DNA of 64,000 nucleotides from Leptolyngbya sp. ERB_1_1 (lineage in GTDB: Bacteria; Cyanobacteriota; Cyanobacteriia; Leptolyngbyales; Leptolyngbyaceae): contig PSLO01000009.1 in assembly GCA_040289665.1 (NCBI GenBank), positions 3,308 to 67,307 on the forward strand, read 5' to 3'. A program made the translations under genes and the position numbers. Of this stretch, positions 3,884 through 55,947 are shown in pieces (position 1 is the stretch's first letter; the number at the start of each line of letters is the position of its first letter). Below the pieces are notes generated by a model, which did not search any database, was not told where the DNA came from, and worked only from the letters and a program-made list of their open reading frames with translations.

Positions 3884-6800
3884 ATGAAATCTCGTGATAC
3901 TCAGAAGCAAAAATTGCTGGTCGTCGATGATGAACCGGATAATCTCGACCTCCTCTATAGAACTTTTTATCGAGAGTTTAGAGTGTTGCGGGCGGAAAAC
4001 GGTCCTACGGCACTCGATATTCTTGATAAAGAAGGCGATGTCGCGGTCATCATCTCCGACCAGCGAATGCCCATGATGAGTGGAACAGAATTCCTTAGCC
4101 TAACTGCCTCTAAATATCCCGATATCATCCGGATTATCTTGACAGGCTACACCGATGTTGAAGATCTGGTCGAAGCAATCAATGCGGGTAAAGTGTTCAA
4201 GTACGTCACAAAACCGTGGAGTGATATCGAACTGCGTGACGTGGTAAAAAGCGCGATCGACACCCACACCCTCTTAAGAACCCGTACCGAAGAATTACGC
4301 CGCACCCTCCAACGCGAATCGTTGCTCAATGCAATCACCAGCACGATTCGTAGCGCCCTCAGCTACAACGAAATTCTGCAAACGATCGTCGAAACGATCG
4401 GCAAAAATTTCGATGTCAGCGGTGCGATCGTGTGTCCATTTCGCGATGGCGAGATTCAGGAGCAGACATTTACCTATTGGAAGCCCGCAACACCACATCC
4501 TGATCTCGCTCCGACGATTTGGGAAACATACCAAGTCGAATCGATTCCGGATGTGCAACAGTGCGATCGCATTCAGCACTTTCACGATCGTCAAGCGGCT
4601 TACGCGGTAGCAGATATTCGCTCAACGCTAATGGTTCCACTGATCTGTCAGCAGGAACTGATTGCCATTCTCGCGCTCCACGAATCGGAGAAAAGCCGCA
4701 CTTGGCAACCTGAAGAAATCGATTTAATTCACACAGTTGCGGATCAAGCAGCACTCGCGCTTTCACAAGCACACAATTATGAGCAAGTTCGTGCGCTTGC
4801 AAAACGAGAAGCTTTGATCAATACCATCACTACTGCAATTCGATCGAGCCTTGATCCACAAGAGATTTTTGCAGCGATCACTCAGCAACTTGGACAAGGG
4901 CTACAGGTTGATGGCTGTGCGCTGTCGCTCTGGACAGAAGAAGATGCCTTTGTACAATGTGTGGGATTGCATGATTCAAGCTGGCAAGGACAGAAACCGT
5001 CCGACGCGCTCTTACCACAATCAAGTGTGCCGATCGAAGGCAATCCCGTTTTGCAACAACTGATTGCCACCCAACAGCCGATCGTGCTAAACGATCTGGT
5101 TCAGCATTCAGAATTCAATGTTTCGGAGTTCCACACACCCGCCCGCGCTTTACTCGTCGTTCCATTGATTGCAGATGGCAAGATTATTGGTAGCATTTCG
5201 CTGCGACAGAATTACCAATCACGAAACTGGCAAGCCTCAGAAATTCAACTCGCTCAATCGGTTGCCGCTCAAGCTGCGATCGCAGTACAGCAATCTCGCC
5301 TTTACCAAACGACTCGTCAACAAGCCGAGAAGCTGCTACAACTCGATCGCGCCAAAACTGAATTCTTCCAAAATATCTCACACGAATTCCGAACACCGTT
5401 AACCTTAATGGTTGGACCGCTCGAAGGCGCGGTTTCCTCTAGTCAAGGTCTTTCGTTAGAACAATCGACGATCGCCCTTCGCAACTCTCGCCGTCTGCTT
5501 CGCTTGGTCAATCAACTGCTCGATCTTCAACGCTTAGATGCCGGAAGAATGCAGCCCAAATTTCAACCTTGTAACTTAGCTGAATTTGTCAGCCAAATTG
5601 TTGAGACGTTCCGCCCTTATTGCGAGAAAAAAGGACTTAATCTCATTACTCAGTTGGAACCTTGCTCAGATATCTATCTTGACTTAGAAAAGTTTGACAA
5701 GGTGCTTTATAACCTGCTCTCGAATGCAATGAAGTTCACGCCCGCAGGTCAGATTATCATTGTCGCGCTTGAAGCGATCGACGATCGATGCTGCCTAAAA
5801 GTTCGAGATACCGGAATCGGAATTCGTGCGGATCAATTGCCACATTTATTTGAGCGATTCCGGCAAGCTGAAGGATCTGAAAATCGTAGCTTTGAAGGAA
5901 CAGGTCTCGGATTAGCGCTGGTGAAAGAACTGGTCGAACTGCACAACGGGCAAATTAACGTTGAATCGAGTTATGGGCAAGGAACGACCTTTACGATCGA
6001 TTTGAAATTTGGTGCGGCTCATTTGCCATCTGAACAGGTCGTCGATACGCATTGTGAAGTGCAGACGAACCGAGCCGCAGTCGAACTCGCGGATTTAGAA
6101 GTCGAACTGCAAGACGATCGCGATTCTGAACCTGAATCCCCGATGCCTGCGGCACATGCGAGCGTGACCGAGTTATCTATTCATCAGCATCAAGCGAAAA
6201 TTTTGGTGGTGGATGACAACCCGGATCTACGCTCATACGTTTCTGGCGTTTTGAAGCGACAAGGCTATCTGGTTTGGACGGCTCGTAACGGTGCAGAAGG
6301 CTTTGAGCAAGCAAAAACACATTATCCATCTTTGATCGTGACGGATTTGATGATGCCGATCGTGTCAGGGTTAGACATGATCCGCATGATTCGCGCTCAA
6401 GAAGATCTCAAAGGAACGCCGATCGTCTTACTGACTGCCAAAGCCGACGAAGATACTCGGCTCGAAGGGGTAGAGCGCGGTGCAGATGCCTACTTATCCA
6501 AGCCGTTTAACGATCGAGAGTTACTAGCTGAAGTCCGAAACTTACTTGCACTCAAAGAAAACGAGCAGCGTGTTTCTCGAATTAACACGTATCTCACCGA
6601 ATCTGTTCTCCGTCGATTCTTGCCACCAACGTTGGTAAAGCGTGCGGCTCAAGGCGAACTTACCCTCGATCTTCGCCCCGAACCTCGAATGATCACGGTC
6701 TTGTTTAGCGATATTGTTGGATTCACTCAACTTTCAAATACTTTACGATCGCGGCGAGTCGCTGAACTTCTCAATGAGTATCTGACGGCAATGACGCGCT

Positions 6801-7261
6801 GTGTGTTTGATAACGGCGGTACAGTTGATAAATTTATGGGCGATGCGATTCTTGCCATCTTCGGAGCGCCAGAAGAACTCACCCCAAATGAACAAGTCCG
6901 ACGCGCGATCGCAGCAGCCCGCCAGATGTATCGCACGCTTGATCAACTCAATGCCCAGTGGGAAGCGCAGGGGATCGATCGCGTCTGTTTCCGTTGTGGA
7001 ATTCATCAGGGAACTGCCGTTGTCGGAATGTTTGGGGGCGAAGAGCGAGCAGATTACACGGCAATCGGTCCGAGTGTAAACATTGCGGCTCGTCTGCAAG
7101 AAGCGGCGGCTCCGGGGGTAATTCTCATCTCCGCTGCGGTTGCAGATTATGTCGATGAAAATATTATGAAAGAAAGTCCACTGAAGCTCAAAGGTGTGGA
7201 TGAAACCGTGTTGACGTTCTCAGTGAGTCCCTATCCTGATCGGGTTTCAATGCGGCACTAA
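3884..7261 (+). CDS. cyaC: Hybrid sensor kinase / adenylate cyclase (REC-GAF-GAF-HisKA-HATPase-REC-class III cyclase); alternative start 3827
   Basis: N-terminal LLVVDDEPD receiver, two GAF domains, H-box ISHEFRTPL, GTGLGL, second receiver ILVVDDNPD, cyclase motifs TVLFSDIVGFT, VDKFMGDAILA and DYTAIGPSVNIAARL. This is the CyaC architecture. Confidence 0.92.
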   Translation: MKSRDTQKQKLLVVDDEPDNLDLLYRTFYREFRVLRAENGPTALDILDKEGDVAVIISDQRMPMMSGTEFLSLTASKYPDIIRIILTGYTDVEDLVEAINAGKVFKYVTKPWSDIELRDVVKSAIDTHTLLRTRTEELRRTLQRESLLNAITSTIRSALSYNEILQTIVETIGKNFDVSGAIVCPFRDGEIQEQTFTYWKPATPHPDLAPTIWETYQVESIPDVQQCDRIQHFHDRQAAYAVADIRSTLMVPLICQQELIAILALHESEKSRTWQPEEIDLIHTVADQAALALSQAHNYEQVRALAKREALINTITTAIRSSLDPQEIFAAITQQLGQGLQVDGCALSLWTEEDAFVQCVGLHDSSWQGQKPSDALLPQSSVPIEGNPVLQQLIATQQPIVLNDLVQHSEFNVSEFHTPARALLVVPLIADGKIIGSISLRQNYQSRNWQASEIQLAQSVAAQAAIAVQQSRLYQTTRQQAEKLLQLDRAKTEFFQNISHEFRTPLTLMVGPLEGAVSSSQGLSLEQSTIALRNSRRLLRLVNQLLDLQRLDAGRMQPKFQPCNLAEFVSQIVETFRPYCEKKGLNLITQLEPCSDIYLDLEKFDKVLYNLLSNAMKFTPAGQIIIVALEAIDDRCCLKVRDTGIGIRADQLPHLFERFRQAEGSENRSFEGTGLGLALVKELVELHNGQINVESSYGQGTTFTIDLKFGAAHLPSEQVVDTHCEVQTNRAAVELADLEVELQDDRDSEPESPMPAAHASVTELSIHQHQAKILVVDDNPDLRSYVSGVLKRQGYLVWTARNGAEGFEQAKTHYPSLIVTDLMMPIVSGLDMIRMIRAQEDLKGTPIVLLTAKADEDTRLEGVERGADAYLSKPFNDRELLAEVRNLLALKENEQRVSRINTYLTESVLRRFLPPTLVKRAAQGELTLDLRPEPRMITVLFSDIVGFTQLSNTLRSRRVAELLNEYLTAMTRCVFDNGGTVDKFMGDAILAIFGAPEELTPNEQVRRAIAAARQMYRTLDQLNAQWEAQGIDRVCFRCGIHQGTAVVGMFGGEERADYTAIGPSVNIAARLQEAAAPGVILISAAVADYVDENIMKESPLKLKGVDETVLTFSVSPYPDRVSMRH

Positions 7262-7351
7262 TCTGATGGAACTAAACGAGTGCGATCGCAGACGAGAGAG
7301 CTAGGATAGGAACGGTGTTCCTGTTGCTTTCTGGGTGGGTGAGATTTCAGC

Positions 7352-8558
7352 ATGGCGTTTTCTGCTTCAACCAATCGATCGAGACCCCAAGAGTCTCCGA
7401 TGCTCTGGCTATCCCTGGTCGCTGGATCGCTCGTGGTACATCTAGCAGCGCTTTTGATCGGTCGCTGGTATTTTTCTCAAGCCGCAAGCGCTCCAGCGGG
7501 TATGGCTCAAGCTCCCCTTGATTTTGTGGAAATCGATCCGAATGCGCCTGCCTTAAAGCGCCCGATCGCGCCGACATCCCCTCAGACCGCCCCATCGAAA
7601 ACAATTCCCCCTCAGACCGCCCCGGCTGAACCCACTCAGTCGTCGAGTTTGCTTGAGAGCTTAGCCCGTCAAGCTGAATTAGAGCGAATCCGGAGTGAAG
7701 CGCAGCGATCACAGCCTCGCAACAGTCCCGCTCCTGTCCCTGTTAATCCGGTAAATCCGCCTCGTCGATCGCAGTCCGATCAACTTCCAAAAGCGCAATC
7801 CCACTGCGCCTTTTCCACCTCGATCGACTACCCCTCCCATCCCAACTCCGGGTGGGAGCAATCCGACGCAGCCTTCTACTCCTGGCTCATCTACACCAGG
7901 AACAACAGCGCCCTCACCAGGCTCTTCTACTCCGACTCATACTCCGACTCAACCTCAGCCAGAAACGCCTAATAATCCAAATCCTGGAAATCCTGGTGAT
8001 TCTGCAACCGGAACGCCTAGCAATCCAGCACCCGAAACGCCTAGTAATCCAAATCCTGGAAATCCTGGTGATTCTGCAACCGGAACGTCTAGCAATCCAT
8101 CTACAGGCGATCCGAATTCTCCAGCGACTTCGGGAGATCCTTTATCAATTTCCACCAATGTTCGGGGTGAGATATATGGAAATCTTGCAGAAGTTGGCTT
8201 CAACCCCGGAGAGTTTGCAAAAGGGACGGTCAGCCTTAAGTCTCCTCCGCAGTTTTCCATTAAGTTTGACTATCCCAGTAAGCTCCCGGTCAGTACTCTA
8301 GATTTGCGAGTCGGACTGAAAATTACTAAAGAAGGGCAAGTGGTGTATTCCGAGGTGCTAGATGATAGCCCGTCGTTGCAGCAAGACCCCAAGCTAAAAG
8401 ATTCTAGGGTGAAGCAAGATATTCAGTCGATCGTGCAAAATCTCATCCTCAATGCAAACGCAGATGGTAGTTTGGCATTTAATGTCGATCTCGGTCTCGA
8501 TTCAAGAGGATTGGATGCTTACCGAATTATGAACCTCCGGATCAATATCAATCAGTAA
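7352..8558 (+). pseudogene. TonB-like membrane-anchored proline-rich protein split by a +1 frameshift near 7789-7793
   Basis: N-terminal TM (LWLSLVAGSLVVHLAALL), then a Pro-rich linker. After about 7790 the Pro/Thr/Gly-rich frame continues in frame 3 without a stop into ORF 8304-8558 (LRVGLKITKEGQV, resembling a TonB C-terminal domain). Confidence 0.6.
7962..8099 (+). repeat. 72-bp tandem coding repeat, about 1.9 copies (ETPNNPNPGNPGDSATGTPSNPAP)
   Basis: GAAACGCCTA(A/G)TAATCCAAATCCTGGAAATCCTGGTGATTCTGCAACCGGAACG starts at 7962 and again at 8034. Confidence 0.9.
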
Positions 8559-44647: not shown

Positions 44648-44877
44648 GAAACAATCCTATGACTGGCTGGTTATCACTCCTTTATTGTAAAAGGTTCAGC
44701 CGCATTGAAAAATCAGACAGATGGTAAGTTGAAGATTCGATCGCACATGGATTGCACAAAGTCGGAGCGCACCATGCCAATGCAAGTGAAGCGAGTGACC
44801 CCAAGAATATTTGGAGCTTGAAAGCCAAGCAGAGTTTCGCAGTTCAACAAAACATGAAGCACATCGTTCTTAAAATC

Positions 44878-44914
44878 AAAAATCCCTCGAGCTGGTTGAG
44901 TCGAGGGACTTTTT
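44878..44914. terminator. Terminator hairpin downstream of the small basic protein
   Basis: TCCCTCGA (44883-44890) / TCGAGGGA (44901-44908), flanked by an A-run and a T-run. Confidence 0.7.
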
Positions 44915-44983
44915 CGTGAACTTGTTCATAAGCTAGTGCGAACAGTCTGTAGAGCAACGCTACTGACAAAGCCTCATCCAAGC

Positions 44984-45169
44984 CTACACATCAGCAGCGC
45001 CTTCAGAAACCCGGTTTTCACCTTGATCCCCTTCGTTCTCATCGCGGTTGCCGTCAAATCGTCTGCCACGATTGCCAAACCGACCTGTATTCGTGCGCTT
45101 GCGGAATTTACGCGCGTAAGCTTGGTTACGCAGAGCTTTTTCTTTCTTTTGGTTGCGGCGTTTAGCCAT
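44984..45169 (-). CDS. Small protein, basic N-terminus and acidic C-terminus (61 aa)
   Basis: AGGGG RBS-like sequence upstream; MAKRRNQKKEKALRNQAYARKFRKR; own downstream hairpin. Confidence 0.75.
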   Translation of the reverse strand: MAKRRNQKKEKALRNQAYARKFRKRTNTGRFGNRGRRFDGNRDENEGDQGENRVSEGAADV

Positions 45170-45331
45170 TGTTTACCCCTTACTTGTCACAGTCTTTGCT
45201 GAATCTAGACGCAGTTGACGATTATATTTCATAACTGAAGGTTTTAGCTAGTCCCTTGCAGCGATTCGAGCGATCGTAAACGTAATCCAGATTACAGCTT
45301 AGCTCGATCCTGCCGACGCAAAACTTAAATT

Positions 45332-46633
45332 TCACAGCAGCGATCTCGCAAATTCTACGGCTTCTTCGCGCGTCGAAATTTTTGCTTCGGCTCGTGCCAA
45401 CTGCAACGCTGCCAGAAGCTTGCCAATCTGAGGACTGGGCGGAATTTGTAAGAGGTTGATCAAATCTTGTCCAGTTAAAATTGGATTCGGATGCGCTACC
45501 GGATCGGACGGATCAAGAAATCGATCGATCAGCATCGCCACATCTTCAACTGGAAGCTTGATCGCAAAACCGAGAAGCGCGATCGCTGGAAAAACTGCGC
45601 CCACCGTTTGAAAGAACTGATACTGCTCCGCCAGCGACCAATCGGCGATCGCATGACCCGATTTTAGCTGCGGCAACGCTTTCAAAACCGTACTCACAGC
45701 TTGAATTTCCGCACGACTATATTTCAGTCGCCACAATTGTGCCTCAGCAGTTTGGGGATCATCCGGTAGCAAGCTGGCAAGTTTGGCGATCGTTACCCAA
45801 GTTCGGACTGATCCCTTCGCCTCGGATGCTTTGGGAGTGCCGCGCACCGTCCGGCTCAGTTCTGACCAAAACTCCGTCCAGGTTTCTTGTAAATGCACCG
45901 TGACATGATCGATCGCAGCAATTTGTGCGAGACGATCGGGCGTTGCACTTGGAAACCAGTCATGCAATAAGTCATCTTCCCAAGCTGTTTTAATCCAGCT
46001 TGTTCCGCGTGCGGTTCCCAAAAGATAGTTCAACTCGGATTGCACCCGTTCAGCCGCGATTTTGTTCAGATCAGGCGCGAGTTGGCGAATGGCTTGCTGG
46101 GTTTCGGAGTCTAGCGTAAATCCGAGTTGAGCGGCTTGACGATACGCCCGGAGCAATCGCAGCGGATCTTCTGCCAAATTCTCAACCGAGACCATTCTGA
46201 GGCGTTTTTGCTGCAAATCTTCGTAACCGTGAAGCGGATCGAGCAAATCTTTCGTGTGGGGATTGTAAGCGATCGCATTCACCGTAAAATCACGTCGGCG
46301 CAAGTCATCCTCTAACGTTTCGCCCACTTGAAGCGCAAAATCCGCTGTTCCTTGTTCAAACACCACGCGGGCGATCTGTCGCTCTGCATCGAGCACCACG
46401 AATCCAGCGCGATAATGACGCGCGATCGCCTGTGCGGTTTCTACCGCATCGGTGGGTAAAACGAAATCGAGATCGAGATATTCAGAATGTCGATCGAGCA
46501 ACGCATCTCGCACGGTTCCACCCACCAAACACGCGGATTTTGGCAACCACTTTAGATTAAAGGGCCACGTCTCCGGCGACAGAGCGGACGAAACCAATGC
46601 CACGTTGCGATAATGTTCTAACTGCAAATTCAC
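45332..46633 (-). CDS. Class II tRNA nucleotidyltransferase (probably CC-adding type)
   Basis: LVGGTVRD, DLD, DLRRRDFTVNA, EDPLRLLRAYR, AERV..EL; short loop before motif B. Confidence 0.85.
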   Translation of the reverse strand: MNLQLEHYRNVALVSSALSPETWPFNLKWLPKSACLVGGTVRDALLDRHSEYLDLDFVLPTDAVETAQAIARHYRAGFVVLDAERQIARVVFEQGTADFALQVGETLEDDLRRRDFTVNAIAYNPHTKDLLDPLHGYEDLQQKRLRMVSVENLAEDPLRLLRAYRQAAQLGFTLDSETQQAIRQLAPDLNKIAAERVQSELNYLLGTARGTSWIKTAWEDDLLHDWFPSATPDRLAQIAAIDHVTVHLQETWTEFWSELSRTVRGTPKASEAKGSVRTWVTIAKLASLLPDDPQTAEAQLWRLKYSRAEIQAVSTVLKALPQLKSGHAIADWSLAEQYQFFQTVGAVFPAIALLGFAIKLPVEDVAMLIDRFLDPSDPVAHPNPILTGQDLINLLQIPPSPQIGKLLAALQLARAEAKISTREEAVEFARSLL

Positions 46634-46826
46634 GCGCTTAGCTAACCTAGATCGAAGTCGTACTGTAACAAAAAAATCGAGTCGGAGAAAACCTCTTCAC
46701 GAGTCGATCGCAATATAAATCAACCTAATTTCAGGTGATAAATTGAATGCGCCTGAGCTAGAGTAACAGAAAAGCAAGCTCAAACACCCCTATCCCCTCT
46801 ATTGTGATGCAGAGGAACCGGAAACC

Positions 46827-47075
46827 ATGTGTATTTGCGTAAATTGTCACTATGTCGATCGCTGCACCACTTACAACGCAGTCGAAACTCAGCACGAACA
46901 GGCTCATTTAACTGAAACGCCTGATTTTGAAGCAACCGAACCCACGATCAATGTGAATATTCGCGATCGTGGAGATCACATCGAGATGGAATGGGATGTG
47001 GTTGGCTGTCTCAGCTTCAAGGAAGAAAAAGGCAAGTGGGCGAAGCTTCGACCTGGTGAGTTGATTCCAACTTAA
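46827..47075 (+). CDS. ycf34: Ycf34-family Fe-S protein
   Basis: MCICVNCHYVDRC...EWDVVGC.SF.EE.GKW..LRPGE.IPT. Confidence 0.92.
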   Translation: MCICVNCHYVDRCTTYNAVETQHEQAHLTETPDFEATEPTINVNIRDRGDHIEMEWDVVGCLSFKEEKGKWAKLRPGELIPT

Positions 47076-47166
47076 TACAGATCTCCGTATCAGCCGAATT
47101 GCAAATTGTGGATTGGCACCTGATTTGAGGGAATGTTAAGGGCGTAAAAACCTTGAGAACAAAACC

Positions 47167-48606
47167 TTGAAAACCAGGTTCCAAGCCGTGCGTTTCATTC
47201 GTCGCTCTTCGTGTCATCTCACTGCTGCAATTGTCGCATTTGGGTTTGCTGCTTTTCCCGCGTCTGCTCAAGATGCTAAGGCAAATGTGCCTAAACCGTC
47301 TCCTGAAGTGTTAAATCGGATTCAGGAAGCAAAGAACCTTTTCAATCAAGGCGAAAGTCGGACGCGGGATATCAAATATCGCGAGGCGTTAGAGTCTTAC
47401 AATCGCGCGATTCAACTCAATCCGACGTGGGGCAGTCCTTATATCAGTCGGGGAGCGGTTCGATCGAAGCTTGGAGATTATCAAGGTGCAATTCAAGACC
47501 TCGATCAAGCGGCTCAAATCAATCCCACGGATGCCATGATTTACGCCCATCGAGGCAGTGCGCGGCTTAGTTTGGGAGATAGCACTGCTGCACTCACTGA
47601 TTTAAACCAAGCGATCACCCTCAATCCCAATCTGGCGATCGCTTATGTGAATCGGGGTTATATTCACGCACAATCGCAAAACTGGGATGAAGCGATCGCG
47701 GATTTTGATCAAGCGCTGCGAGTTGAGCCGAAATCTGCGCCTGCTTTGGTCAATCGGGGCTTTGCAAAATTACAGAAAGGCGATCGTCAATCCGCACTTG
47801 CTGATCTCAACGAAGCGATTAAACTTCAACCGAATTCTGCAGAAGCGTTGTTGGCGCGTGGCACGATTCAGAACGAAATCGGAGAATCAGAAAGTGCGAT
47901 CGCAGATTTTTCTCAAGCCATTCGCCTTAAACCGACCTTAGCCGATGGGTATTACAACCGCGCCCAAGTAAATGCAAAATTGGGCAATCTTGAAGCGGCA
48001 GAAGCAGATTTAACCAAACTGGCAACGCTCAACCCTGATCAAGCAACGGTCTTTCACCAACGGGGGATGGTACGCGCTGCACTCGGTAACTCCGAAGGCG
48101 CGATCGCAGATTATAACCAAGCGTTAAAACTAGAGCCGAATTTTGCACCTGCGATCAAAAGTCGAGGGGACTTGCGGGCTGCCGGAGGCGATAGAGAAGG
48201 CGCGATCGCGGATTATAACCAAGCGGTACAAATTCAGCCAAATTATGCAGCGGCACTCTCACAGCGGGCAGAAGTGCGATCGAAATTAGGCGATCAATCA
48301 GGTGCAACGCAAGATTTTAGTGCGGCGGTCGATGCAGACAGCAACAATCCGAATGCTTATGAGAATCGGGGCGAAGCGAGAATGAACAGTGGGGATTTGC
48401 AAGGTGCGATCGAGGATTTTAGCAAAGCGATTAGTCTAGATTCGAGCCGACCGAAAGCGTTCTACTGGCGAGGTATTTTGCTCAAACGCATGGGAAATCG
48501 GCAAAGCGCGATCGTGGATCTTCAGCGAGCAGCGGATTTGTATCTGCAAAAAGGCGATGCAGAAGGGTACCGGAACACGCTGGCTCAAATCAATCAAATT
48601 AACTAG
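47167..48606 (+). CDS. Exported tetratricopeptide-repeat protein
   Basis: Signal-like AAIVAFGFAAFPASAQ followed by about 12 TPR units (AYxNRG...AIADFxQAIxLxP). Confidence 0.88.
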   Translation: MKTRFQAVRFIRRSSCHLTAAIVAFGFAAFPASAQDAKANVPKPSPEVLNRIQEAKNLFNQGESRTRDIKYREALESYNRAIQLNPTWGSPYISRGAVRSKLGDYQGAIQDLDQAAQINPTDAMIYAHRGSARLSLGDSTAALTDLNQAITLNPNLAIAYVNRGYIHAQSQNWDEAIADFDQALRVEPKSAPALVNRGFAKLQKGDRQSALADLNEAIKLQPNSAEALLARGTIQNEIGESESAIADFSQAIRLKPTLADGYYNRAQVNAKLGNLEAAEADLTKLATLNPDQATVFHQRGMVRAALGNSEGAIADYNQALKLEPNFAPAIKSRGDLRAAGGDREGAIADYNQAVQIQPNYAAALSQRAEVRSKLGDQSGATQDFSAAVDADSNNPNAYENRGEARMNSGDLQGAIEDFSKAISLDSSRPKAFYWRGILLKRMGNRQSAIVDLQRAADLYLQKGDAEGYRNTLAQINQIN

Positions 48607-49430
48607 GGATGGCTTCGATCGAGCAATTTTGATCGCACCGCTTCGATTGCTGAATGTTCCCCGTATTGTTCCAACTGATCCAGCAATGTAAGCAAATCTA
48701 CGGTAAGCGGTATTCCAAGCTGCAGCGCTTCGAGTGTTTCTTTCTGAGCAAATACGGTTTCAGGTGTGCCTTCGAGCGCTAATGATCCTTGATTGAGAAC
48801 AATCACCCAATCTGCCCAGCGATACACCCACTCTAGGTCGTGTGTTGCCATGACGATCGTGGTTCCAGTCGCGTGAATCGTTTCTAAAGATTGAGCTAGG
48901 GCGCGGATGTGGAGCGGATCGAGGTAAGCAGTTGGTTCATCGAGTAGGAGTAATTCAGGCTTCAGCACCATGACACCTGCAAGAGAAACGTGCTTTTTTT
49001 GTCCCAAACTTAACTGATGAATCGGACGATTGGCGAGTTCAATCAATCCGAATTCTTTTAGTACCGGGTCGATCGCGGCTTCAATCTGCGATTCCTCCCA
49101 CCCTAAGTTGCACAAGCCGTAAGAAATGTCTTCGATCACCGTTGAGGCGATGACTTGCTGTTCGGGATTTTGGAACACTAATCCAACTTTTTGCCGCAGA
49201 TCGATCAGCGATCGTCGATCGTACTTCAGCCGTTTTCCTTTCCAATAAATTTCGCCGCCCTGAGGTTGATACAGTCCGTTTGCAAGCAGAAATAAAGTCG
49301 TTTTACCGCAGCCGTTCTGACCAATTAAAGCAATCCGTTTCGAGCTTGGAATTTGCAGCGTTAAAGCTCGAATGGCAGATGCCGTTGTTCCCGGATAGGT
49401 GTAGTCAACGTTGCGAAATTCTAGAAGCAT
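48603..49430 (-). CDS. cbiO: ECF transporter ATPase (CbiO-like)
   Basis: GQNGCGKTT, FQNPEQQ, LSLGQKK, LLLDEPT, ATHD. Confidence 0.85.
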   Translation of the reverse strand: MLLEFRNVDYTYPGTTASAIRALTLQIPSSKRIALIGQNGCGKTTLFLLANGLYQPQGGEIYWKGKRLKYDRRSLIDLRQKVGLVFQNPEQQVIASTVIEDISYGLCNLGWEESQIEAAIDPVLKEFGLIELANRPIHQLSLGQKKHVSLAGVMVLKPELLLLDEPTAYLDPLHIRALAQSLETIHATGTTIVMATHDLEWVYRWADWVIVLNQGSLALEGTPETVFAQKETLEALQLGIPLTVDLLTLLDQLEQYGEHSAIEAVRSKLLDRSHP

Positions 49431-50206
49431 AGACTTAGTAAAAGCAGAAAACAGCCGAAACTTGCTTCGATCGTATATCGTTGAGAGGTTTGATACCGTT
49501 GCGGCGACCAAACCCGAAATGTACCGTTGAAGCCCCTTGCAGCCGTTGATAATACGAATTGCTGATAGTTTTCCATTGTCCTCCGAAAAAGCTGGCTCAC
49601 CAAAAGACTCAAGCTATAGAACCAACGTTGCTGTGTTCGATATCCATTACGAGAATGCTGAGCTGTCCAGAATTCGCTTGCAGTAGACAATAAGATAAAA
49701 ATAAAACGATACATTAATAGTAACAACTCTGTTAGTATTTCTGGACATCTCATCTGTCTCATAACTTGTAATACTTCTGAGAACGGAGTCGTCAACAGTA
49801 AAAAATATAGACATGAAACAGTCGCGATCGTGCGCGTAAAAATCAATCCGGCTTGTAAAACGCCCTGCTGACTAAGATAAAAGTAATATGAGCCGATCGA
49901 CCATCCCGATAGAACATCCGCCTGAATGCTCGCCTGTTCAGACAGTGCAACGCCAGCGATTAACAATGCGGGGATGCTCGTCAACCAAAATACGATCGCA
50001 ACACTCAACATCCGCCCGTAGATCTTGCTCGGAATTCCGGCATACTTCACAACCCAAACATTCATCCAGATCGCGATCGCAATTTGGATGATGGGGCGAG
50101 TGACCAACGCAAGAACCAGCACAATTCCTGCAAATAGCACTTTCTGTCGAGGCGGTAAACCTCGCAAGCGATTGTGATAAGAAAATGTATCAATCCATAA
50201 ATGCAT
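49421..50206 (-). CDS. cbiQ: Cobalt/nickel ECF transporter T component (CbiQ-like)
   Basis: Multi-pass TM protein with LLTTPFSEVL, LMYRFIFIL and conserved SRNG and ARGF motifs. Confidence 0.82.
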   Translation of the reverse strand: MHLWIDTFSYHNRLRGLPPRQKVLFAGIVLVLALVTRPIIQIAIAIWMNVWVVKYAGIPSKIYGRMLSVAIVFWLTSIPALLIAGVALSEQASIQADVLSGWSIGSYYFYLSQQGVLQAGLIFTRTIATVSCLYFLLLTTPFSEVLQVMRQMRCPEILTELLLLMYRFIFILLSTASEFWTAQHSRNGYRTQQRWFYSLSLLVSQLFRRTMENYQQFVLSTAARGFNGTFRVWSPQRYQTSQRYTIEASFGCFLLLLSLCF

Positions 50207-50209
50207 TCA

Positions 50210-51124
50210 TTAACACGCTTGAGCAACCAGAGTCCGATGACGCGGAGAGTTACAAGTTAGAGTCGGTTGAGTAAAGCCTGCTTCCACGATCGCACGCTCC
50301 AAATCAAACGTAAAGTACTGATCTAGATAAGGTTCCGTACTTTTGAGCAGCGTCAGAATATACGGCGGCATCTTGGCATGAACTTCAGAACGCGGATTCA
50401 TATCCATAATGGCAAGATGACCCCCCGGACGCAGCAATCTTCGTGCTTCTTGCAGAATCGTGATCGCAGCATCCTGCGGCAACTCATGAAACAATAAGCA
50501 AGCCGAAACCAAATCATACGAAGCAGAAGGTAAACCGGTCGCTTCCGCCGCTGCGTGTCGCCAATTGATATTTTCACGACTGCCCGTTCGATACTCTGCA
50601 ACGGCTAAGAAATGCGGTGAAAGATCCACACCCGTCACCGTTGAATCTGGGAAAGTTTCTTGCAGCGCAACGGTACTCATTCCCACACTGCACCCGAAAT
50701 CTACAATCGCTTTCGGTGCAGTTGAAATTTCGGATTCTAAGACATCGTGATAACTTTGCCGCAATCGTCGATCGCCATCTTTTCCGGCATCTTTCCAAAT
50801 CCGAGCATGAACCGCATAAGCTGCCACTTCAACTTCAGTTGCAGGCTCCCAGGCTAAATTTCCCGCTTCATATGCATGGAATGGGCGCAGATAATATTCG
50901 GGATATTCCAAATCGGGATTGTTCACTTTTTCAAACTCTGCTGACCAATCTCGCGCCTGCAAATCAGCCACAATTTCTGTCCAAGGAACGCCGATCAATT
51001 CTGCGCGTTTGATCATCATGTTGCGAGCGCGAACCCTTGCCAAATTAAACACAGGCGGAATTGATAGAATACCGCTGACGATGCGGGAGGTCAGTCTAGG
51101 CTTGGTTTCGCGAGTCGCTGTCAT
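50210..51124 (-). CDS. Class I SAM-dependent methyltransferase
   Basis: IVDFGCSVG motif I, GVDLSP, YDLVSACLLFHELP, LRPGG. Confidence 0.88.
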   Translation of the reverse strand: MTATRETKPRLTSRIVSGILSIPPVFNLARVRARNMMIKRAELIGVPWTEIVADLQARDWSAEFEKVNNPDLEYPEYYLRPFHAYEAGNLAWEPATEVEVAAYAVHARIWKDAGKDGDRRLRQSYHDVLESEISTAPKAIVDFGCSVGMSTVALQETFPDSTVTGVDLSPHFLAVAEYRTGSRENINWRHAAAEATGLPSASYDLVSACLLFHELPQDAAITILQEARRLLRPGGHLAIMDMNPRSEVHAKMPPYILTLLKSTEPYLDQYFTFDLERAIVEAGFTQPTLTCNSPRHRTLVAQAC

Positions 51125-51196
51125 ATTTAAATTTGGATTTAATCAACACTTCTCATTCTACCGGAGCGCGATCGCTAGACAAATAAAGGAATTAAA

Positions 51197-51266
51197 GATA
51201 CAAATGTTCTGAGAAAGATAAACAAATTTACTAGACGAGCGTGCAAATTTGTGATACAAGTGTTCT
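51197..51266 (+). promoter_or_regulatory. Two variant LexA boxes upstream of lexA
   Basis: GATAC-AAA-TGTTCT (51197-51210) and GATAC-AAG-TGTTCT (51253-51266), each one mismatch from RGTAC-NNN-DGTWCB. Confidence 0.65.
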
Positions 51267-51303
51267 AAAATCCTTTAGTTATTTGTGATCCTGGCAGGCG
51301 TTT

Positions 51304-51924
51304 ATGGAACCTCTTACCGAAGCCCAACAACAACTCTACGATTGGCTGGTTGAATACATCCGTGACCACCAACACGCTCCTTCGATTCGGCAAATGATGA
51401 CCGCGATGAATCTGAAGTCTCCGGCTCCTGTTCAAAGCCGCTTGGAGCATCTCCGCAATAAGGGCTATATCGGCTGGACAGAGGGACAAGCCCGCACGAT
51501 TCGGATTCTCAATCCGTTGCCGCAAGGAGTGCCGATTCGAGGCGCGATCGCGGCAACGAGTTTAGTTGAGACTTTCCCAGATGTGGAAGTCGAATACCTT
51601 GACTTGTCGAATTTGCTGTTGAAGCCGAATCATTTTGCTTTGAAAGTACGCGGTCACAGCATGATCGATGCGCTAATTGATGATGGCGATATTGTGATTT
51701 TGCAGCCTGTGAACGATGCGAGAGCGATTAAGAATGACACGATCGTTGCTGCCCACCATCAAGGCAAAGCGACACTGAAATACTTTGAGCGCAAAGGAAG
51801 TAAGGTAATTCTCAAACCTGGCAACCCGAATCGCGATTTGTATCCGATCACCGAAGTTCCTGCCTCAGAAGTTGAGATTCAAGGGGTTTTGGTTGGGGTT
51901 TGGCGCGGCTACGGCAAGATCTAA
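51304..51924 (+). CDS. lexA: LexA repressor with cyanobacterial-type DNA-binding domain; cleavage site reads Ala-Thr
   Basis: MEPLTEAQQQLYDWL...PSIRQMM..MNLKSPAPVQSRLEHLR...ARTIRIL, then GAIAATS, GHSM, TLK. Confidence 0.92.
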   Translation: MEPLTEAQQQLYDWLVEYIRDHQHAPSIRQMMTAMNLKSPAPVQSRLEHLRNKGYIGWTEGQARTIRILNPLPQGVPIRGAIAATSLVETFPDVEVEYLDLSNLLLKPNHFALKVRGHSMIDALIDDGDIVILQPVNDARAIKNDTIVAAHHQGKATLKYFERKGSKVILKPGNPNRDLYPITEVPASEVEIQGVLVGVWRGYGKI

Positions 51925-52070
51925 GTTGAGCCAAATCGTTGAGCCAAATCTTAGAATAGGGACGTTGTTGATCAGCGCCCCTGTTTTCGCTATCTCAATT
52001 AAGAGTTCTGAAGCGTGGAACAATCGAGCATCGTAAGCGATCGAGAATTTCAAATCGTCGTTACTATGCG

Positions 52071-53444
52071 ATGATGACTAACGTTCTCGCACATCCCGAT
52101 TCCGTGAATATTCAACCGTATCTCAGAGTGTTTCAGAGTCGAAAAATGGCGGCTCTGATCTTACTCGGCTTCTCGTCTGGTCTGCCGTTTTACTTAACCG
52201 GAAAAGATCCGCTTCAGGCTTGGTTAAGTCAAGAAGGTGTCGATTTGAAAGTGATCGCAGCCTTTAGCGTGGCGGCGATTCCGTATTCGCTGAAATTCTT
52301 GTGGTCGCCGTTGCTCGATCGCTTTGTGCCCCCGCTCCTCGGACGCAGACGCGGATGGCTCATCGTGAGTCAGATTATTTTGCTACTCGCGATCGGCTGG
52401 ATGGCATTCCAAGATACTAGCCAGTTGCAGCAAGTTGCGGTAAATTCGGCGGACGCGTGTCGAGATGAAACAGTGTTCAAAGGCTTTTGTAGTTTTTGGC
52501 AAACCATCAAGGCACTTTCGATTAGTCCGTTTTTCATAGCGGCATTGATCGTTGCATTTTTTAGCGCGAGTCAGGATATTGTCGCGGATGCGTATCGAAC
52601 CGAAGTTTTACAAGAATACGAACGGGGTGCGGGAGCTTCGGTCTTTTTGCTCGGTTATCGGTTGGCGATTTTGGTTGCTGGGGCAGTTACGTTTTATTTA
52701 GCGGGAATCATGCCTTGGCGATGGGTGTATGTGATTATGGCGTTGCTAATGTCGATCGGCATTATCAGTTCGTTAATTGCACCAGAACCGACGACGCAAA
52801 TTCGACCCCCTGAAACACTGAGAGAATCAGTCGTAATGCCGTTTCAGGATTTTATCGGGCGGAATGGATTCGGACAGGCGATCGCAATTCTCGCATTCAT
52901 TGTAGTTTATCGTTTAGGCGATTCATTACTGCGGAACGTTGCAACGCCGTTTTTACTCGATAAAGGCTTGAAGTTTAGCCCCGAAGATTTAGCCACACCG
53001 AGAGCATTGAGTATTGTAGCGGTGATCGTTGGAACGCTCGCGGGGGGAGCGATTATGACGCGAATCGGGGTGAATCGATCGCTGTGGTTTTTCGCTGTGC
53101 TGCAAGCGAGTGGAAATCTGCTTTATGTTTTGCTTGCAGAAGTGGGAAAAAGTTTCCCATTAATGGTTCTGGCAATTAATTTAGAAAACTTTTGCGCCGG
53201 ATTAGAGTCAGCGGCATTTGTGGCGTTTTTGATGGGATTGTGCAATCCGGGACTGGCTGCAACTCAGTACGCCTTGCTATCAAGTTTAGCGGCGTTTAGC
53301 CGTGATATTTTGGTTGCACCTTCGGGACAGTGGGCACAGGCAATGGGTTGGACATCATTCTTTTTGCTCACGGCAATTCTGGCGTTACCGGGGTTATTGC
53401 TTCTACCTTTCTTCGCACCGTGGAATGAACGCAAGGCAGGTTAG
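52071..53444 (+). CDS. ampG: AmpG-family muropeptide MFS transporter
   Basis: LGFSSGLP, LKFLWSPLLDR, RRRGW, SASQDIVADAYR, ATQYALLSSL. Confidence 0.9.
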   Translation: MMTNVLAHPDSVNIQPYLRVFQSRKMAALILLGFSSGLPFYLTGKDPLQAWLSQEGVDLKVIAAFSVAAIPYSLKFLWSPLLDRFVPPLLGRRRGWLIVSQIILLLAIGWMAFQDTSQLQQVAVNSADACRDETVFKGFCSFWQTIKALSISPFFIAALIVAFFSASQDIVADAYRTEVLQEYERGAGASVFLLGYRLAILVAGAVTFYLAGIMPWRWVYVIMALLMSIGIISSLIAPEPTTQIRPPETLRESVVMPFQDFIGRNGFGQAIAILAFIVVYRLGDSLLRNVATPFLLDKGLKFSPEDLATPRALSIVAVIVGTLAGGAIMTRIGVNRSLWFFAVLQASGNLLYVLLAEVGKSFPLMVLAINLENFCAGLESAAFVAFLMGLCNPGLAATQYALLSSLAAFSRDILVAPSGQWAQAMGWTSFFLLTAILALPGLLLLPFFAPWNERKAG

Positions 53445-53498
53445 CGATTCCTTTCGATGATTGTTAGGGTGCGATCGCTCATTCAGTCATCTTATGAA

Positions 53499-53607
53499 GA
53501 CTAACGGCAAAACGCAGCGACGGCAGATAACTTCGAGCTTAGGCATCAGTAACTTCGAGCTTAGGCATCAGCGATTTCCGTCCATCCGCTGCCATGAAGT
53601 GTTAGCC
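53499..53607 (-). mobile_element. Integron attC-like recombination site (109 bp)
   Basis: Minus strand: R'' GGCTAAC - ACTTC (5 nt) - L'' ATGGCAGC ... L' GCTGCGT - TTTGCC (6 nt) - R' GTTAGTC. L'' has one extra base relative to L'. Inner arm GACGG/CCGTC. The stop codon of the upstream ORF lies within R''. Confidence 0.75.
53528..53571. repeat. Perfect 22-bp tandem duplication inside the attC-like site
   Basis: TAACTTCGAGCTTAGGCATCAG at 53528-53549 and 53550-53571. Confidence 0.95.
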
Positions 53608-54222
53608 CGGTAGCAAAGACTGCATATCTGATATGTACACTGAGTAGTTTTTCCAGTCGAGAATCTGTATGACATCATAAGCTAAGTTCTCTTGAGGGTG
53701 CAAAGTAAGGGAAAACTGATTACCAAAAGTAGCTGCTAGATTAGCAAAACAATCTTGTATGGGTCTCCTAAAACTACCTTCCTCATAATGCAATGATTGA
53801 TTACGCCCTTGCCAAATTACATTTTTTAATTTCTCAGATCCGACGCTTCTTCCGTCAGAACAATTAGTGAGATTACCATGCACTTTTGATATTCCTTGTT
53901 TAGCAATTTGTAGTAAGGCTCCACATAGAGCATTGATAGAATCTTTCTTAATGTCGATCGATAATTCCAACCGCTTTATCTCTTCTTGTAAATCAGTAAT
54001 CTCTTGCTGCTCTTTAGCCCAGTTTACAAAATAGGATTGTAACTTTATCTCATCAACATCATCGTTCCACTCTGAATCCCTAAATCGCCTGTATAGAAAT
54101 TCTAGTTTGGGTTTCTTAGCTTCACATGCCAACTGAATTTGTGCAATCTGAACTTCCTCAGCAGTAATTAGCTCAACTAATTGATGAACTGCATAATCCG
54201 TATCGATTAAATATTGATTCAT
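53602..54222 (-). CDS. AT-rich cassette-like gene; coiled-coil N-terminus with R-x4-H (HEPN-like) motif
   Basis: 206-aa ORF. Three 60-nt lines counted by hand gave 32-40% GC, and the neighbours appear GC-richer. No full HIP1 site. Motif WQGRNQSLHYEEG. Confidence 0.8.
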   Translation of the reverse strand: MNQYLIDTDYAVHQLVELITAEEVQIAQIQLACEAKKPKLEFLYRRFRDSEWNDDVDEIKLQSYFVNWAKEQQEITDLQEEIKRLELSIDIKKDSINALCGALLQIAKQGISKVHGNLTNCSDGRSVGSEKLKNVIWQGRNQSLHYEEGSFRRPIQDCFANLAATFGNQFSLTLHPQENLAYDVIQILDWKNYSVYISDMQSLLPG

Positions 54223-54323
54223 AGCATCACTCTATCGATTTTCTCAATGATATTAATTTTCAAGAGGGCTTGGAGTATGGGAGATAGCTATGCTGAGTGA
54301 ACTGCCTGCACCAAGAACTTGAG

Positions 54324-54345
54324 GGCTAACTATGAATTAGACGGA
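54324..54345 (-). mobile_element. Core site / att half-site marking the 5' edge of the putative cassette
   Basis: Minus strand TCCGTCTAATTCATA-GTTAGCC. GTTAGCC is the exact complement of the GGCTAAC inverse core at 53601-53607. Confidence 0.5.
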
Positions 54346-54600
54346 TCTGACCTGTCCTACTCTGTTTCGGATTGCTCAAGCCCTCGCTTCACTCTGCCAA
54401 TAATCTGCAAGCACGATCGCACAATGTCCTATTGACTCTGCCTCAAAATCAATTAGTCTCTCAAGCTAAGAAAATTGGTGTCCCACACTGTTTGCCTAAA
54501 GTCCCAAAAATTGAATTCCACCAGCGCTGCCCAAAGTTGCTCGTACCAACGATGAGCAGCTAACAGTCTTGGACGGTTAGCACCAGTCCGGCAGACTACT

Positions 54601-54648: not shown

Positions 54649-55947
54649 CTACAAAGTCAACGATTGAGCATCGGTCTCAATCAGTTTTGCTAAATCGCGT
54701 AAGAATGCTGCTGCAACCGCGCCATAAATAATCCGGTGATCGCAAGTGATATTGACCTGCATTTGCCGACGAACGCCTAGCATCCCGTCATCATTCGCGA
54801 CTACATTTGCTCGTGAAGCGCCGATCGCTAAAATCGCTCCCTGTCCGGGCGGCAAAATTGCGTCAAACGAATCCACGCCAAACATTCCTAGATTCGATAG
54901 CGTGAAGGTTCCAGAGCTATACTCATCGGGTTGGAGTTGCTTGGTTCTGGCTCGATCGACTAAATCTTTCCAATTGCGAGACAGTGAGTAGAGATCTTGC
55001 TGATCCGCATTCTGCAATACAGGCGTGATCAAGCCGCCATCTTCCATTGCAACCGCAACCGCAACATTGATCGAAGCATTAAATCGAATGCCATTTTCAA
55101 CGTAGCTTGCATACAGCAAAGGATGTTTTTGTAATGTGACTGCAGCCGCTTTTGCTAATAGCGCAGTCATCGTTACACCTTTCGATTTCACTTGCTTGTA
55201 GAGCTTGTCGAGCGCGTCCGTGGTGATCGTATATCCCACGTGGAATACCGGAACCTCTAAACTTGCCATCATGTTTCGCACAACAGCGGTTTGTAAGGTG
55301 GTCATCGGTTGTACTTGTCCGGGTTGCGCGGGAATCGGAGCAGGCGCGGGGCGCGGAGTCGATGCGATTGTGGCAACCGGAGCGGGAGTGGCGGGAACCG
55401 GGAGTTTTGCGGGCTCGCTTACGAGAGCCGAAGGCACCGTCGCTGTGGGTGTTTTTCCAGCGGCAGCTTCGACATCTTCAGCCACGATCCGACCGTGAGG
55501 ACCGCTACCCACGAGGGTAGAGAGTTCAACTTTGAGATCTTTCGCGAGTTTGCGGGCGCGAGGAGACGCGATCGTTCTGCCATTTTTGGGTGCGGCGGTG
55601 CTACCGTTGGCTGAGGCAACGGCGGTTACAGGTTCTGGGGTTGGGGCAGGAGTGGGTTCAGGAGCGGGAGCCGACACCGCTTGCTGTTTGGCGAGTTCGA
55701 TTTCGGCTTCGGTTTCGGCTAAAAGCGCGATCGCACTGCCGACCGGGGCGGTTTCGCCTGCTGCGGTGACGATCGTGGCAAGATAGCCTTCGTAAAAAGA
55801 CTCGACATCCATATCGGCTTTGTCCGATTCGACCACCACGACGGTTTCGCCTTTTTCAATCTTGTCGCCCGGAGACTTGACCCAGGACACGATTTTTCCT
55901 TCGGTCATCGTGGAGCTGAGAGCGGGCATGAAAATTTCGTGGATCAT
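54649..55947 (-). CDS. pdhC: Pyruvate dehydrogenase E2, dihydrolipoamide acetyltransferase
   Basis: MPALSSTMTEG, lipoyl motif ESDKADM, E3-binding ASPRARKLA, catalytic DHRIIYG. Confidence 0.96.
   Translation of the reverse strand: MIHEIFMPALSSTMTEGKIVSWVKSPGDKIEKGETVVVVESDKADMDVESFYEGYLATIVTAAGETAPVGSAIALLAETEAEIELAKQQAVSAPAPEPTPAPTPEPVTAVASANGSTAAPKNGRTIASPRARKLAKDLKVELSTLVGSGPHGRIVAEDVEAAAGKTPTATVPSALVSEPAKLPVPATPAPVATIASTPRPAPAPIPAQPGQVQPMTTLQTAVVRNMMASLEVPVFHVGYTITTDALDKLYKQVKSKGVTMTALLAKAAAVTLQKHPLLYASYVENGIRFNASINVAVAVAMEDGGLITPVLQNADQQDLYSLSRNWKDLVDRARTKQLQPDEYSSGTFTLSNLGMFGVDSFDAILPPGQGAILAIGASRANVVANDDGMLGVRRQMQVNITCDHRIIYGAVAAAFLRDLAKLIETDAQSLTL

Follow-up and report, generated by a model that had tools for sequence, protein, structure and literature searches.

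A single integron gene cassette at an attI-like junction in the chromosome of Leptolyngbya sp. ERB_1_1, a likely relic of a decayed integron

The stretch of DNA analysed here ("the window": 64,000 nucleotides of the cyanobacterium Leptolyngbya sp. ERB_1_1, assembly GCA_040289665.1, contig PSLO01000009.1, positions 3,308 to 67,307 of the forward strand) carries, between an ampG-like gene and pdhC, a single integron-type gene cassette that consists of one open reading frame (ORF; its product is called the cargo below) and one attC site. The integron integrase (IntI) recombines the folded bottom strand of attC, an imperfect palindrome, at G↓TT, where the arrow marks the crossover. The parts of the cassette are listed here in window numbering, which is used throughout, and its features are read on the minus strand.

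53505..54329, minus strand: gene cassette (825 bp) that starts with the TT of the 5' core and ends with the G of the 3' core
54324..54330, minus strand: 5' core G↓TTAGCC, the left cassette boundary, exact complement of the cassette's own R''
53602..54222, minus strand: cargo ORF of 206 aa with its stop codon inside R'', encoding an all-alpha protein with an invariant RNQSxH motif
53499..53608, minus strand: attC site, placed by covariance model R1, box parse and fold
53608-53602, minus strand: attC box R'', GGCTAAC
53596-53589, minus strand: attC box L'', ATGGCAGC, 8 nt, after the spacer ACTTC
53518-53512, minus strand: attC box L', GCTGCGT, followed by the spacer TTTGCC
53505-53499, minus strand: attC box R', GTTAGTC, the distal core
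53528..53571, no strand assigned: perfect 22-nt tandem duplication, 2 x TAACTTCGAGCTTAGGCATCAG, in the variable loop (arm) of the attC

The bounds of the cassette are given by the two cores, by the points at which homology ends in other genomes and by the covariance-model match. A leader of 101 nt (54323-54223, minus strand) separates the 5' core from the ORF, whose TAA stop falls within the GGCTAAC of R'', and the distal core differs from the 5' core in one base. A purpose-written structural parser returned the identical attC parse, with spacers of 5 and 6 nt and six of seven L-box pairs formed when one L'' base is bulged out; R'' and R' are complementary at 6/7 positions, and the invariant AAC and GTT are both present. 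In alignment with cassettes of 74-85% identity (L047, L049), homology begins at the 5' core, at ATAGTTAGCCCTCA. Several unrelated first cassettes of other integrons (e.g., L144 and L108) open with TTA(G/T)CCCTCA(A)G as does this one at 54316-54329; conservation at the start of first cassettes reaches about 6 nt past the 7-nt R' box.

The site at the 3' end of the ORF is a genuine attC. We built a covariance model (R1) from 11 attC sites in intI-linked arrays (eight from Myxacorys, two from Nodosilinea and one from Leptolyngbya), none of which is linked to the cargo gene and all of which come from unrelated cassettes in other cyanobacteria; RNAalifold folded these references into a common structure in which 13 of 19 pairs show compensatory changes and the '' arm has two bulged columns. 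Run on the window with filters off, R1 matched 53499-53607 on the minus strand over the full length of the model (36.1 bits, E 1.3e-6; genome-wide E 9.3e-5). The second-best match in the window reached 9.5 bits (E 4.1), the opposite strand gave no match, and R1 found no further attC in the 64 kb. The attC sequence occurs once in the genome and so is not a dispersed repeat. An original prediction, read from the letters of the window, had described an ~825-bp gene cassette of the integron type bounded by an attC and had asked for a covariance-model score; the match to our own model bears it out. The anatomy that it had laid out was correct to the base, with every element where it had been placed, and its two remarks on the cores, the 5' core being the exact complement of the inverse core and the distal core being one base off, are both seen in the sequence. 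A reading of attC anatomy from sequence only can, then, be right to the base.

The minimum-energy bottom-strand fold of this attC pairs the R and L boxes, with a free energy (dG) of -10.6 kcal/mol and z +0.9; the reference attCs gave -12.7 to -18.8 kcal/mol and mostly z -1 to -4. Single-sequence folding was rejected as a discriminator of attC sites, several bona fide array attCs also having z near 0, and a strict regular expression (GCAGCGG..CCGCTG..GTTA) run genome-wide missed the window's own site and matched only noise, so that the covariance model was used instead. A folding energy no better than that of shuffles, together with cores that are both one base off consensus, is what could be said for taking the structure as a chance imperfect palindrome, a transcription terminator or some 3' structure of the gene's mRNA. 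We give this almost no credence, and for practical purposes it is refuted: the independent model matches on one strand only, homology across contexts ends exactly at GTTA, sibling sites stand in arrays beside intI, and the 5' core, complementary to R'', sits on an attI junction. An origin of the hairpin in an IS200/IS605-like element or a miniature inverted-repeat transposable element (MITE) was likewise rejected, as there is only one terminal structure, unique in the genome, and it fits the attC model.

The cargo family belongs to real integrons. The attC architecture recurs with homologues of 51-86% identity in at least seven further settings in cyanobacteria (Pseudanabaenaceae bins, Leptolyngbya, Myxacorys, Nodosilinea and metagenome contigs): xxCTAAC, GCAGCGG, CCGCTG, spacer and GTTA follow in order 3' of the gene, R1 scores run from 18 to 76 bits, and one homologue-linked site has the compensatory change GCACCGG/CCGGTG. 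In alignments of the flanks of the homologous cassettes, homology stops exactly at GTTA. An integron integrase is found in four of seven of these homologue genomes (TIGR02249, 463-478 bits vs a cut-off of 265), and fragments in two more. Myxacorys has at least eight similar attC sites arrayed beside the integrase, and in a complete integron of Nodosilinea (L118) the cargo homologue is the second cassette:

Nodosilinea L118: intI, 4871-5806, minus strand; attI crossover, 6190; attC, 6414-6498; gene, 6636-7256; attC, 7290-7375

Outside the Cyanobacteria, a second complete integron, that of Pelomonas baiyunensis (L057), has a divergent integrase (NF011946, 525.6 bits; TIGR02249, 455.8 bits) 650 nt from a cargo homologue; the attC behind this homologue is 126 nt long, and its bottom strand folds with a dG of -51 kcal/mol. 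A Pseudanabaena contig that is plasmid-like by its ParA/ParB genes (L038/L049) carries a 74%-identical cassette and a GNAT acetyltransferase cassette as a two-cassette cluster.

Set beside these siblings, the attC in the window is degraded. Without one copy of the 22-nt duplication, the distance from R'' to R' is 87 nt, the length of the model and of the sibling attCs; the stem between spacer and L boxes has lost pairs that the closest siblings keep, and the R1 score is 36 bits vs 49-76 for the closest homologue-linked siblings (L040, L047 and L049). The duplication, the weakened stem, the low score and a dG less negative than those of the references fit drift without selection by IntI. At 53459-53469 on the minus strand, 36 nt beyond the cassette end, stands CCCTAACAATC, which agrees with R'' and spacer, the first 11 nt, of array attCs, for example GCCTAACAATC of Myxacorys; this could be what is left of a second attC, truncated at the start of the ampG stop codon. 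Taken alone, the match is not significant.

At the other end of the cassette lies a feature of a different kind:

54331..54346, minus strand: attI stump ATCCGTCTAATTCATA, directly 5' of the crossover G↓TT

The stump was compared with the attI sites of 12 cyanobacterial integrons, six of them from the same genus or family. These sites end ..TTAGGCGGAAAGAGTCAGTCTAATAAATAG↓TT, with the general form GTC(T/C)AAT(A/N)AATAG↓TT and the core ...GTCAGTCTAATAAATAG↓TT, and the 5' junction in the window reads ..GTCAGATCCGTCTAATTCATAG↓TTAGCC (as compared with the attI ends, GTCTAATTCATAG↓TT). The 12 nt before the GTT of the 5' crossover (GTCTAATTCATA) match the cyanobacterial attI cores at 11 positions; just two of the 167,977 GTT sites in the genome reach this level, one of them the cassette junction (p ~1e-5 per GTT site). 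An nhmmer profile of attI aligns its last 19 positions (45-63) at the junction, the fourth best match genome-wide (8.9 bits), and this match carries weight because it falls exactly on the cassette boundary. Judged by this resemblance, the 5' junction of the cassette is of the attI type. What is missing at the stump are the upstream IntI-binding repeats of intact attI sites. In the 12 cyanobacterial integrons the attI region is long, with 300-400 nt from intI to the crossover made up of 4-6 repeated modules of the type tctaat..N..gggtgttatgc(c/a)ga / ttaggcggaaa, and it is far more repetitive than class 1 attI; one such module in Nodosilinea (L118, 6002-6071) scores as a weak attC (36 bits).

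Elsewhere in the host genome, two further single attCs, on contigs C118 and C19, are each preceded by an attI-like site at the distance of one cassette (nhmmer E 3e-6 and 0.003, respectively). The first locus (C118:11193-11912, minus strand; L126, 1501-2218) consists of an attI remnant, a cassette and an attC of 36-38 bits, with the crossover GTT mutated (ATAGGCT); the second (C19:36393-37390, plus strand; L129, 575-1572) has the same three parts with an attC of 21 bits, and both are without intI.

The host assembly is a 99.6% complete draft in 216 contigs, and neither the window nor the rest of it holds an integron integrase: the best TIGR02249 match scores 33.9 bits vs the cut-off of 265, and tblastn with seven cyanobacterial IntI proteins returned only a generic tyrosine recombinase (C159) and nothing on the contig of the cassette. 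The absence of intI that had been noted for the window is thereby confirmed and extended to the genome. Among the relatives, intI exceeds the cut-off in 21/41, including 5/11 same-genus genomes, with fragments in two more, and attC matches to R1 at E <= 0.001 occur in every one of the 12 genomes of the genus, with 3-36 per genome. In genome G001 two attCs and an intI, 0.9-1.7 kb apart, form the classical divergent arrangement, and in complete chromosomes of the genus the attC matches are spread over the whole replicon. The host genome itself has five R1 matches at E <= 1e-4 and three weaker, visually convincing ones, each of them single within ±1.5 kb, so that the attC of our cassette, alone in the window, is not the only one in the genome. 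The strong single attCs are on C167 (L122, 1501-1586; 64.8 bits), C164 (L123, 107-194; 56.5 bits) and C44 (L124, 367-450; 48.6 bits). Two of these three lie within 450 nt of contig ends; cassette arrays may be breaking the assembly at such attCs.

What, then, is the origin of the cassette? With the crossover at G↓TT and only attC on the excised circle, a cassette cannot take the left half of attI along with it, and the simplest reading of an attI half at the junction is that an integron platform once stood at this locus. We therefore favour, as the likelier account though one that leaves considerable room for doubt, a relic of a decayed chromosomal integron: a genuine cassette still seated at the remains of its attI, with intI and most of attI gone, and formally a single attC lacking integron-integrase (SALIN). 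In this order of events, which we infer, the integron platform would have come first, the cassette directly downstream of the last ~16 nt of attI retaining the layout of a first cassette; intI and most of attI would have been lost from the locus later, a local inversion and a repeat insertion contributing; and in a genome now without IntI the cassette would be frozen in place unless the enzyme were supplied in trans. Transcription that runs on from pdhC, which has the same orientation, might express its AT-rich, promoterless-looking gene; a promoter scan found nothing.

The element can be set against the definitions of its possible classes. As in a SALIN, it holds the only R1 match in 64 kb and has no intI, the attI stump being strictly an exception to "no other att site." Of the marks of a complete integron, an adjacent intI is absent, and an attI at the 5' junction is present in its crossover-proximal ~16 nt only. 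An insertion at an ordinary genomic GTT (attG) is expected to go with an empty site in relatives that joins at G↓TT and with flanks unrelated to attI; no relative has such a site, and the flank is attI-like.

Several observations weigh against the decayed platform. The nhmmer match to attI is by itself not significant genome-wide (E 5.7), the similarity to attI is short (about 16-30 nt), and a search of the 318 nt upstream of the cassette found neither an intI pseudogene nor further attI repeats beside it. These 318 nt are all that separates the junction from pdhC, and half of them are a dispersed repeat. With the draft in 216 contigs, intI could in principle sit in an assembly gap, and the same junction could have arisen from IntI acting in trans on an orphan or attI-like site. 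On the side of the attC, the single-sequence fold is no better than that of shuffled sequence (z +0.4 to +1.6), and R'' and R' are each one base off the consensus RYYYAAC / GTTRRRY, at a degenerate position.

The original prediction had offered two origins, an eroded array and insertion at a secondary GTT site, and had leaned toward gene capture by an integrase in trans. Of these the eroded array or integron fits better, given the 11/12 attI match at the junction; the secondary GTT site fits less well, and capture in trans is not the reading that we favour given a junction of attI type. It would have a genuine cassette inserted at attG by an IntI supplied, for example, by a transient plasmid-borne integron, the likeness to attI being target preference or coincidence. 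Such an event has precedent: SALINs are frequent, and experiments have demonstrated the insertion of cassettes by IntI at GWT sites in genomes (bioRxiv 10.1101/2022.09.11.507474); the attC matches scattered over the whole replicon in complete same-genus chromosomes, the 74%-identical cassette on the ParA/ParB plasmid-like contig (a plausible vehicle) and the lack of an intI remnant at the locus all agree with it. The attG sites, however, share only GWT and differ greatly from attI (bioRxiv 10.1101/2022.09.11.507474), whereas 11 of the 12 upstream bases here match attI cores; an attI-like site also precedes two other single attCs of the genome, and no relative offers an empty site that shows a clean insertion. 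On balance we find attG capture improbable, with perhaps the standing of a minority view.

More improbable again is a mixed history, in which an orphan attI that had already lost its integrase served as a landing pad and the cassette was captured later by IntI in trans, an old platform with recent cargo. This too accounts for a junction of the attI type and has in its favour that the cargo ORF is AT-rich (36-37% GC vs 46-50% in the flanks), that the cargo is absent from 40 relatives and that its closest copies come from Pseudanabaenaceae metagenome bins, outside the genus of the host. Lacking the IntI-binding repeats that lie upstream in an intact attI, the stump would, however, make a poor substrate, and the attC is already decaying, which argues for long residence without selection by IntI.

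The cassette also has to be seen in its surroundings, which have been rearranged:

52071..53444, plus strand: ampG-like major facilitator superfamily (MFS) permease, flanking gene with its stop 54 nt from the cassette's R'
54649..55947, minus strand: pdhC (dihydrolipoamide acetyltransferase), upstream flank on the same strand as the cassette
54432..54598, no strand assigned: copy of a dispersed repeat, ~150-170 nt, between the attI stump and the pdhC stop
44875..53443, no strand assigned: 8.6-kb segment inverted relative to five same-genus genomes, its right breakpoint being the cassette interval

In the five same-genus genomes the order is pdhC, a small Uma2-like gene and a segment matching 44875-53443 that ends in ampG. 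In the host this segment (with cbiQ-like, methyltransferase, lexA-like and ampG genes) is inverted with a tight left junction (44843/44875), the Uma2-like gene is missing from the locus and has a 76%-identical copy on contig C157, and homology with the relatives ends at the ampG stop codon. The ampG-pdhC junction occurs in none of the five genomes, and both short flanks of the cassette are unique to the host genome. Because the segment is inverted and the adjacency of ampG and pdhC is found in the host only, the relatives have no empty site for comparison. Remains of intI or attI were sought at the left junction of the inversion (44843-44875) and in the 318 nt between cassette and pdhC; only the dispersed repeat turned up.

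The cassette is a known kind of relic, a SALIN or decayed chromosomal integron, which is well documented and not a new type of element. SALINs have been named and studied (PMC4889954; Loot et al., bioRxiv 10.1101/2022.09.11.507474), and our element resembles them in having one coding sequence and one attC, no other attC in 64 kb, no intI in the genome and several further singles in the genome; it differs in that the published mechanism is insertion at attG (GWT) sites unlike attI, whereas an attI-like 5' junction points to a decayed platform. The phylum had been described to us as one in which integrons are little studied, which is fair as far as it goes, but cyanobacterial intI genes have been reported (Boucher 2007; Nemergut 2008, PMC2426708), IntegronFinder matches are given in PMC4889954, and a Cyanobacteria-specific attC model has been published (PMC8352920).

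With the sedentary chromosomal integrons of Cyanobacteria the cassette shares an attC of ~87 nt with the order xxxTAAC...GCAGCGG...CCGCTG...GTTA and two bulged bases in the '' arm, the attI crossover ..TCTAATAAATAG↓TT, and a cargo family that is a cassette in the complete Nodosilinea integron; unlike them, it has neither integrase nor array, its attI is only a stump, and its attC is duplicated and weakened. The simple site of class 1 attI1, which we take to be ..CCCTAAAACAAAG↓TTAGGC, has the crossover pattern CTAA(A/T)(A/T)CA(A/T)AG↓TTAG(G/C)C in common with the junction in the window. Class 1 integrons differ in integrase class and host phylum, and the window's element misses the upstream direct repeats of an intact attI.

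New here are the attI stump, which would mark a decayed platform as opposed to capture at attG, and a cargo family without a known fold. The locus gives a checkable case of integron decay in a cyanobacterium (integrase gone, attI a stump, attC degenerating) within a genus of which about half the species keep intI. It also suggests that "single attC" elements are not all attG insertions, and that the 12-20 nt upstream of the 5' crossover can tell the relics of platforms from captures at secondary sites.

The cargo has at least 142 homologues across many phyla. In alignments of 96 full-length members and of 35 C-terminal domains, Q105, K108, G110, R140, N141 and H145 are invariant; the last three form the RNQSxH (Rx4H) motif, which satisfies the HEPN pattern Rx4-6H, and one homologue is labelled "HEPN AbiU2-like" by UniRef. 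AlphaFold2 (AF2) models of high predicted local distance difference test (pLDDT) scores, 96.7 for the whole protein and 96.9 for the C-terminal domain, start with a long helical hairpin at the N terminus, which leads into a helical domain that carries the motif. Profile and structure searches were negative in their respective scopes: Pfam on all 96 family members gave no HEPN profile and only coiled-coil noise, NCBIfam, PADLOC and PHROGs searched with the cargo gave no match, a PDB profile search with the cargo gave coiled-coil noise only, and Foldseek against the PDB gave no HEPN or other fold (best E 0.57 for the whole protein and 1.4 for the C-terminal domain).

The company kept by distant homologues is that of mobile and defence genes. 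They lie beside a type I restriction-modification (R-M) system in an integrative and conjugative element (ICE) and in a region resembling a defence island, with WYL, PD-(D/E)XK, reverse transcriptase and recombinase genes, and the neighbours of other homologues are often recombinases or transposases. The cargo is probably a defence or toxin gene, its product perhaps acting through the RNQSxH motif, which would fit the storage of phage-defence genes in integron cassettes described in recent work (e.g., bioRxiv 10.1101/2024.07.02.601719). That it is a HEPN-like RNase is conceivable, with the balance tilted slightly against. Like the HEPN RNases of abortive-infection and toxin systems, it has an invariant R-x4-H in an all-alpha protein and is a single, patchily distributed accessory gene; unlike them, it has no HEPN profile (Pfam, NCBIfam, PADLOC) and no Foldseek structure match, and a long N-terminal hairpin precedes the domain with the motif.

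A wider proposal has somewhat less than even odds in its favour: the cargo could found an uncharacterised single-gene anti-phage or toxin family, an all-alpha new fold with the invariant, catalytic-looking signature QxxKxG...RNQSxH, that moves between Cyanobacteria and Betaproteobacteria genomes in the form of an integron cassette and belongs, in Bacteroidota, Alphaproteobacteria and Firmicutes, to defence islands or ICEs, in a host genus showing a whole-chromosome scatter of attI-cassette relics. If this were true, the genus would be a natural system for the study of how chromosomal integrons decay.

Two features near the cassette remain to be mentioned. A LexA-like repressor gene (S24 peptidase motif) lies at 51304-51924, 2.4 kb from the cassette; integron integrases are often under LexA control (PMC3108266), and nothing at the locus links this gene to the cassette. 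The dispersed repeat at 54432-54598 has at least eight further copies in the genome at 69-80% identity (C183, C215, C19, C161, C66, C50, C82 and C167) and is probably a MITE-like element; one of its copies lies 2.2 kb from the strongest attC of the genome, on C167.

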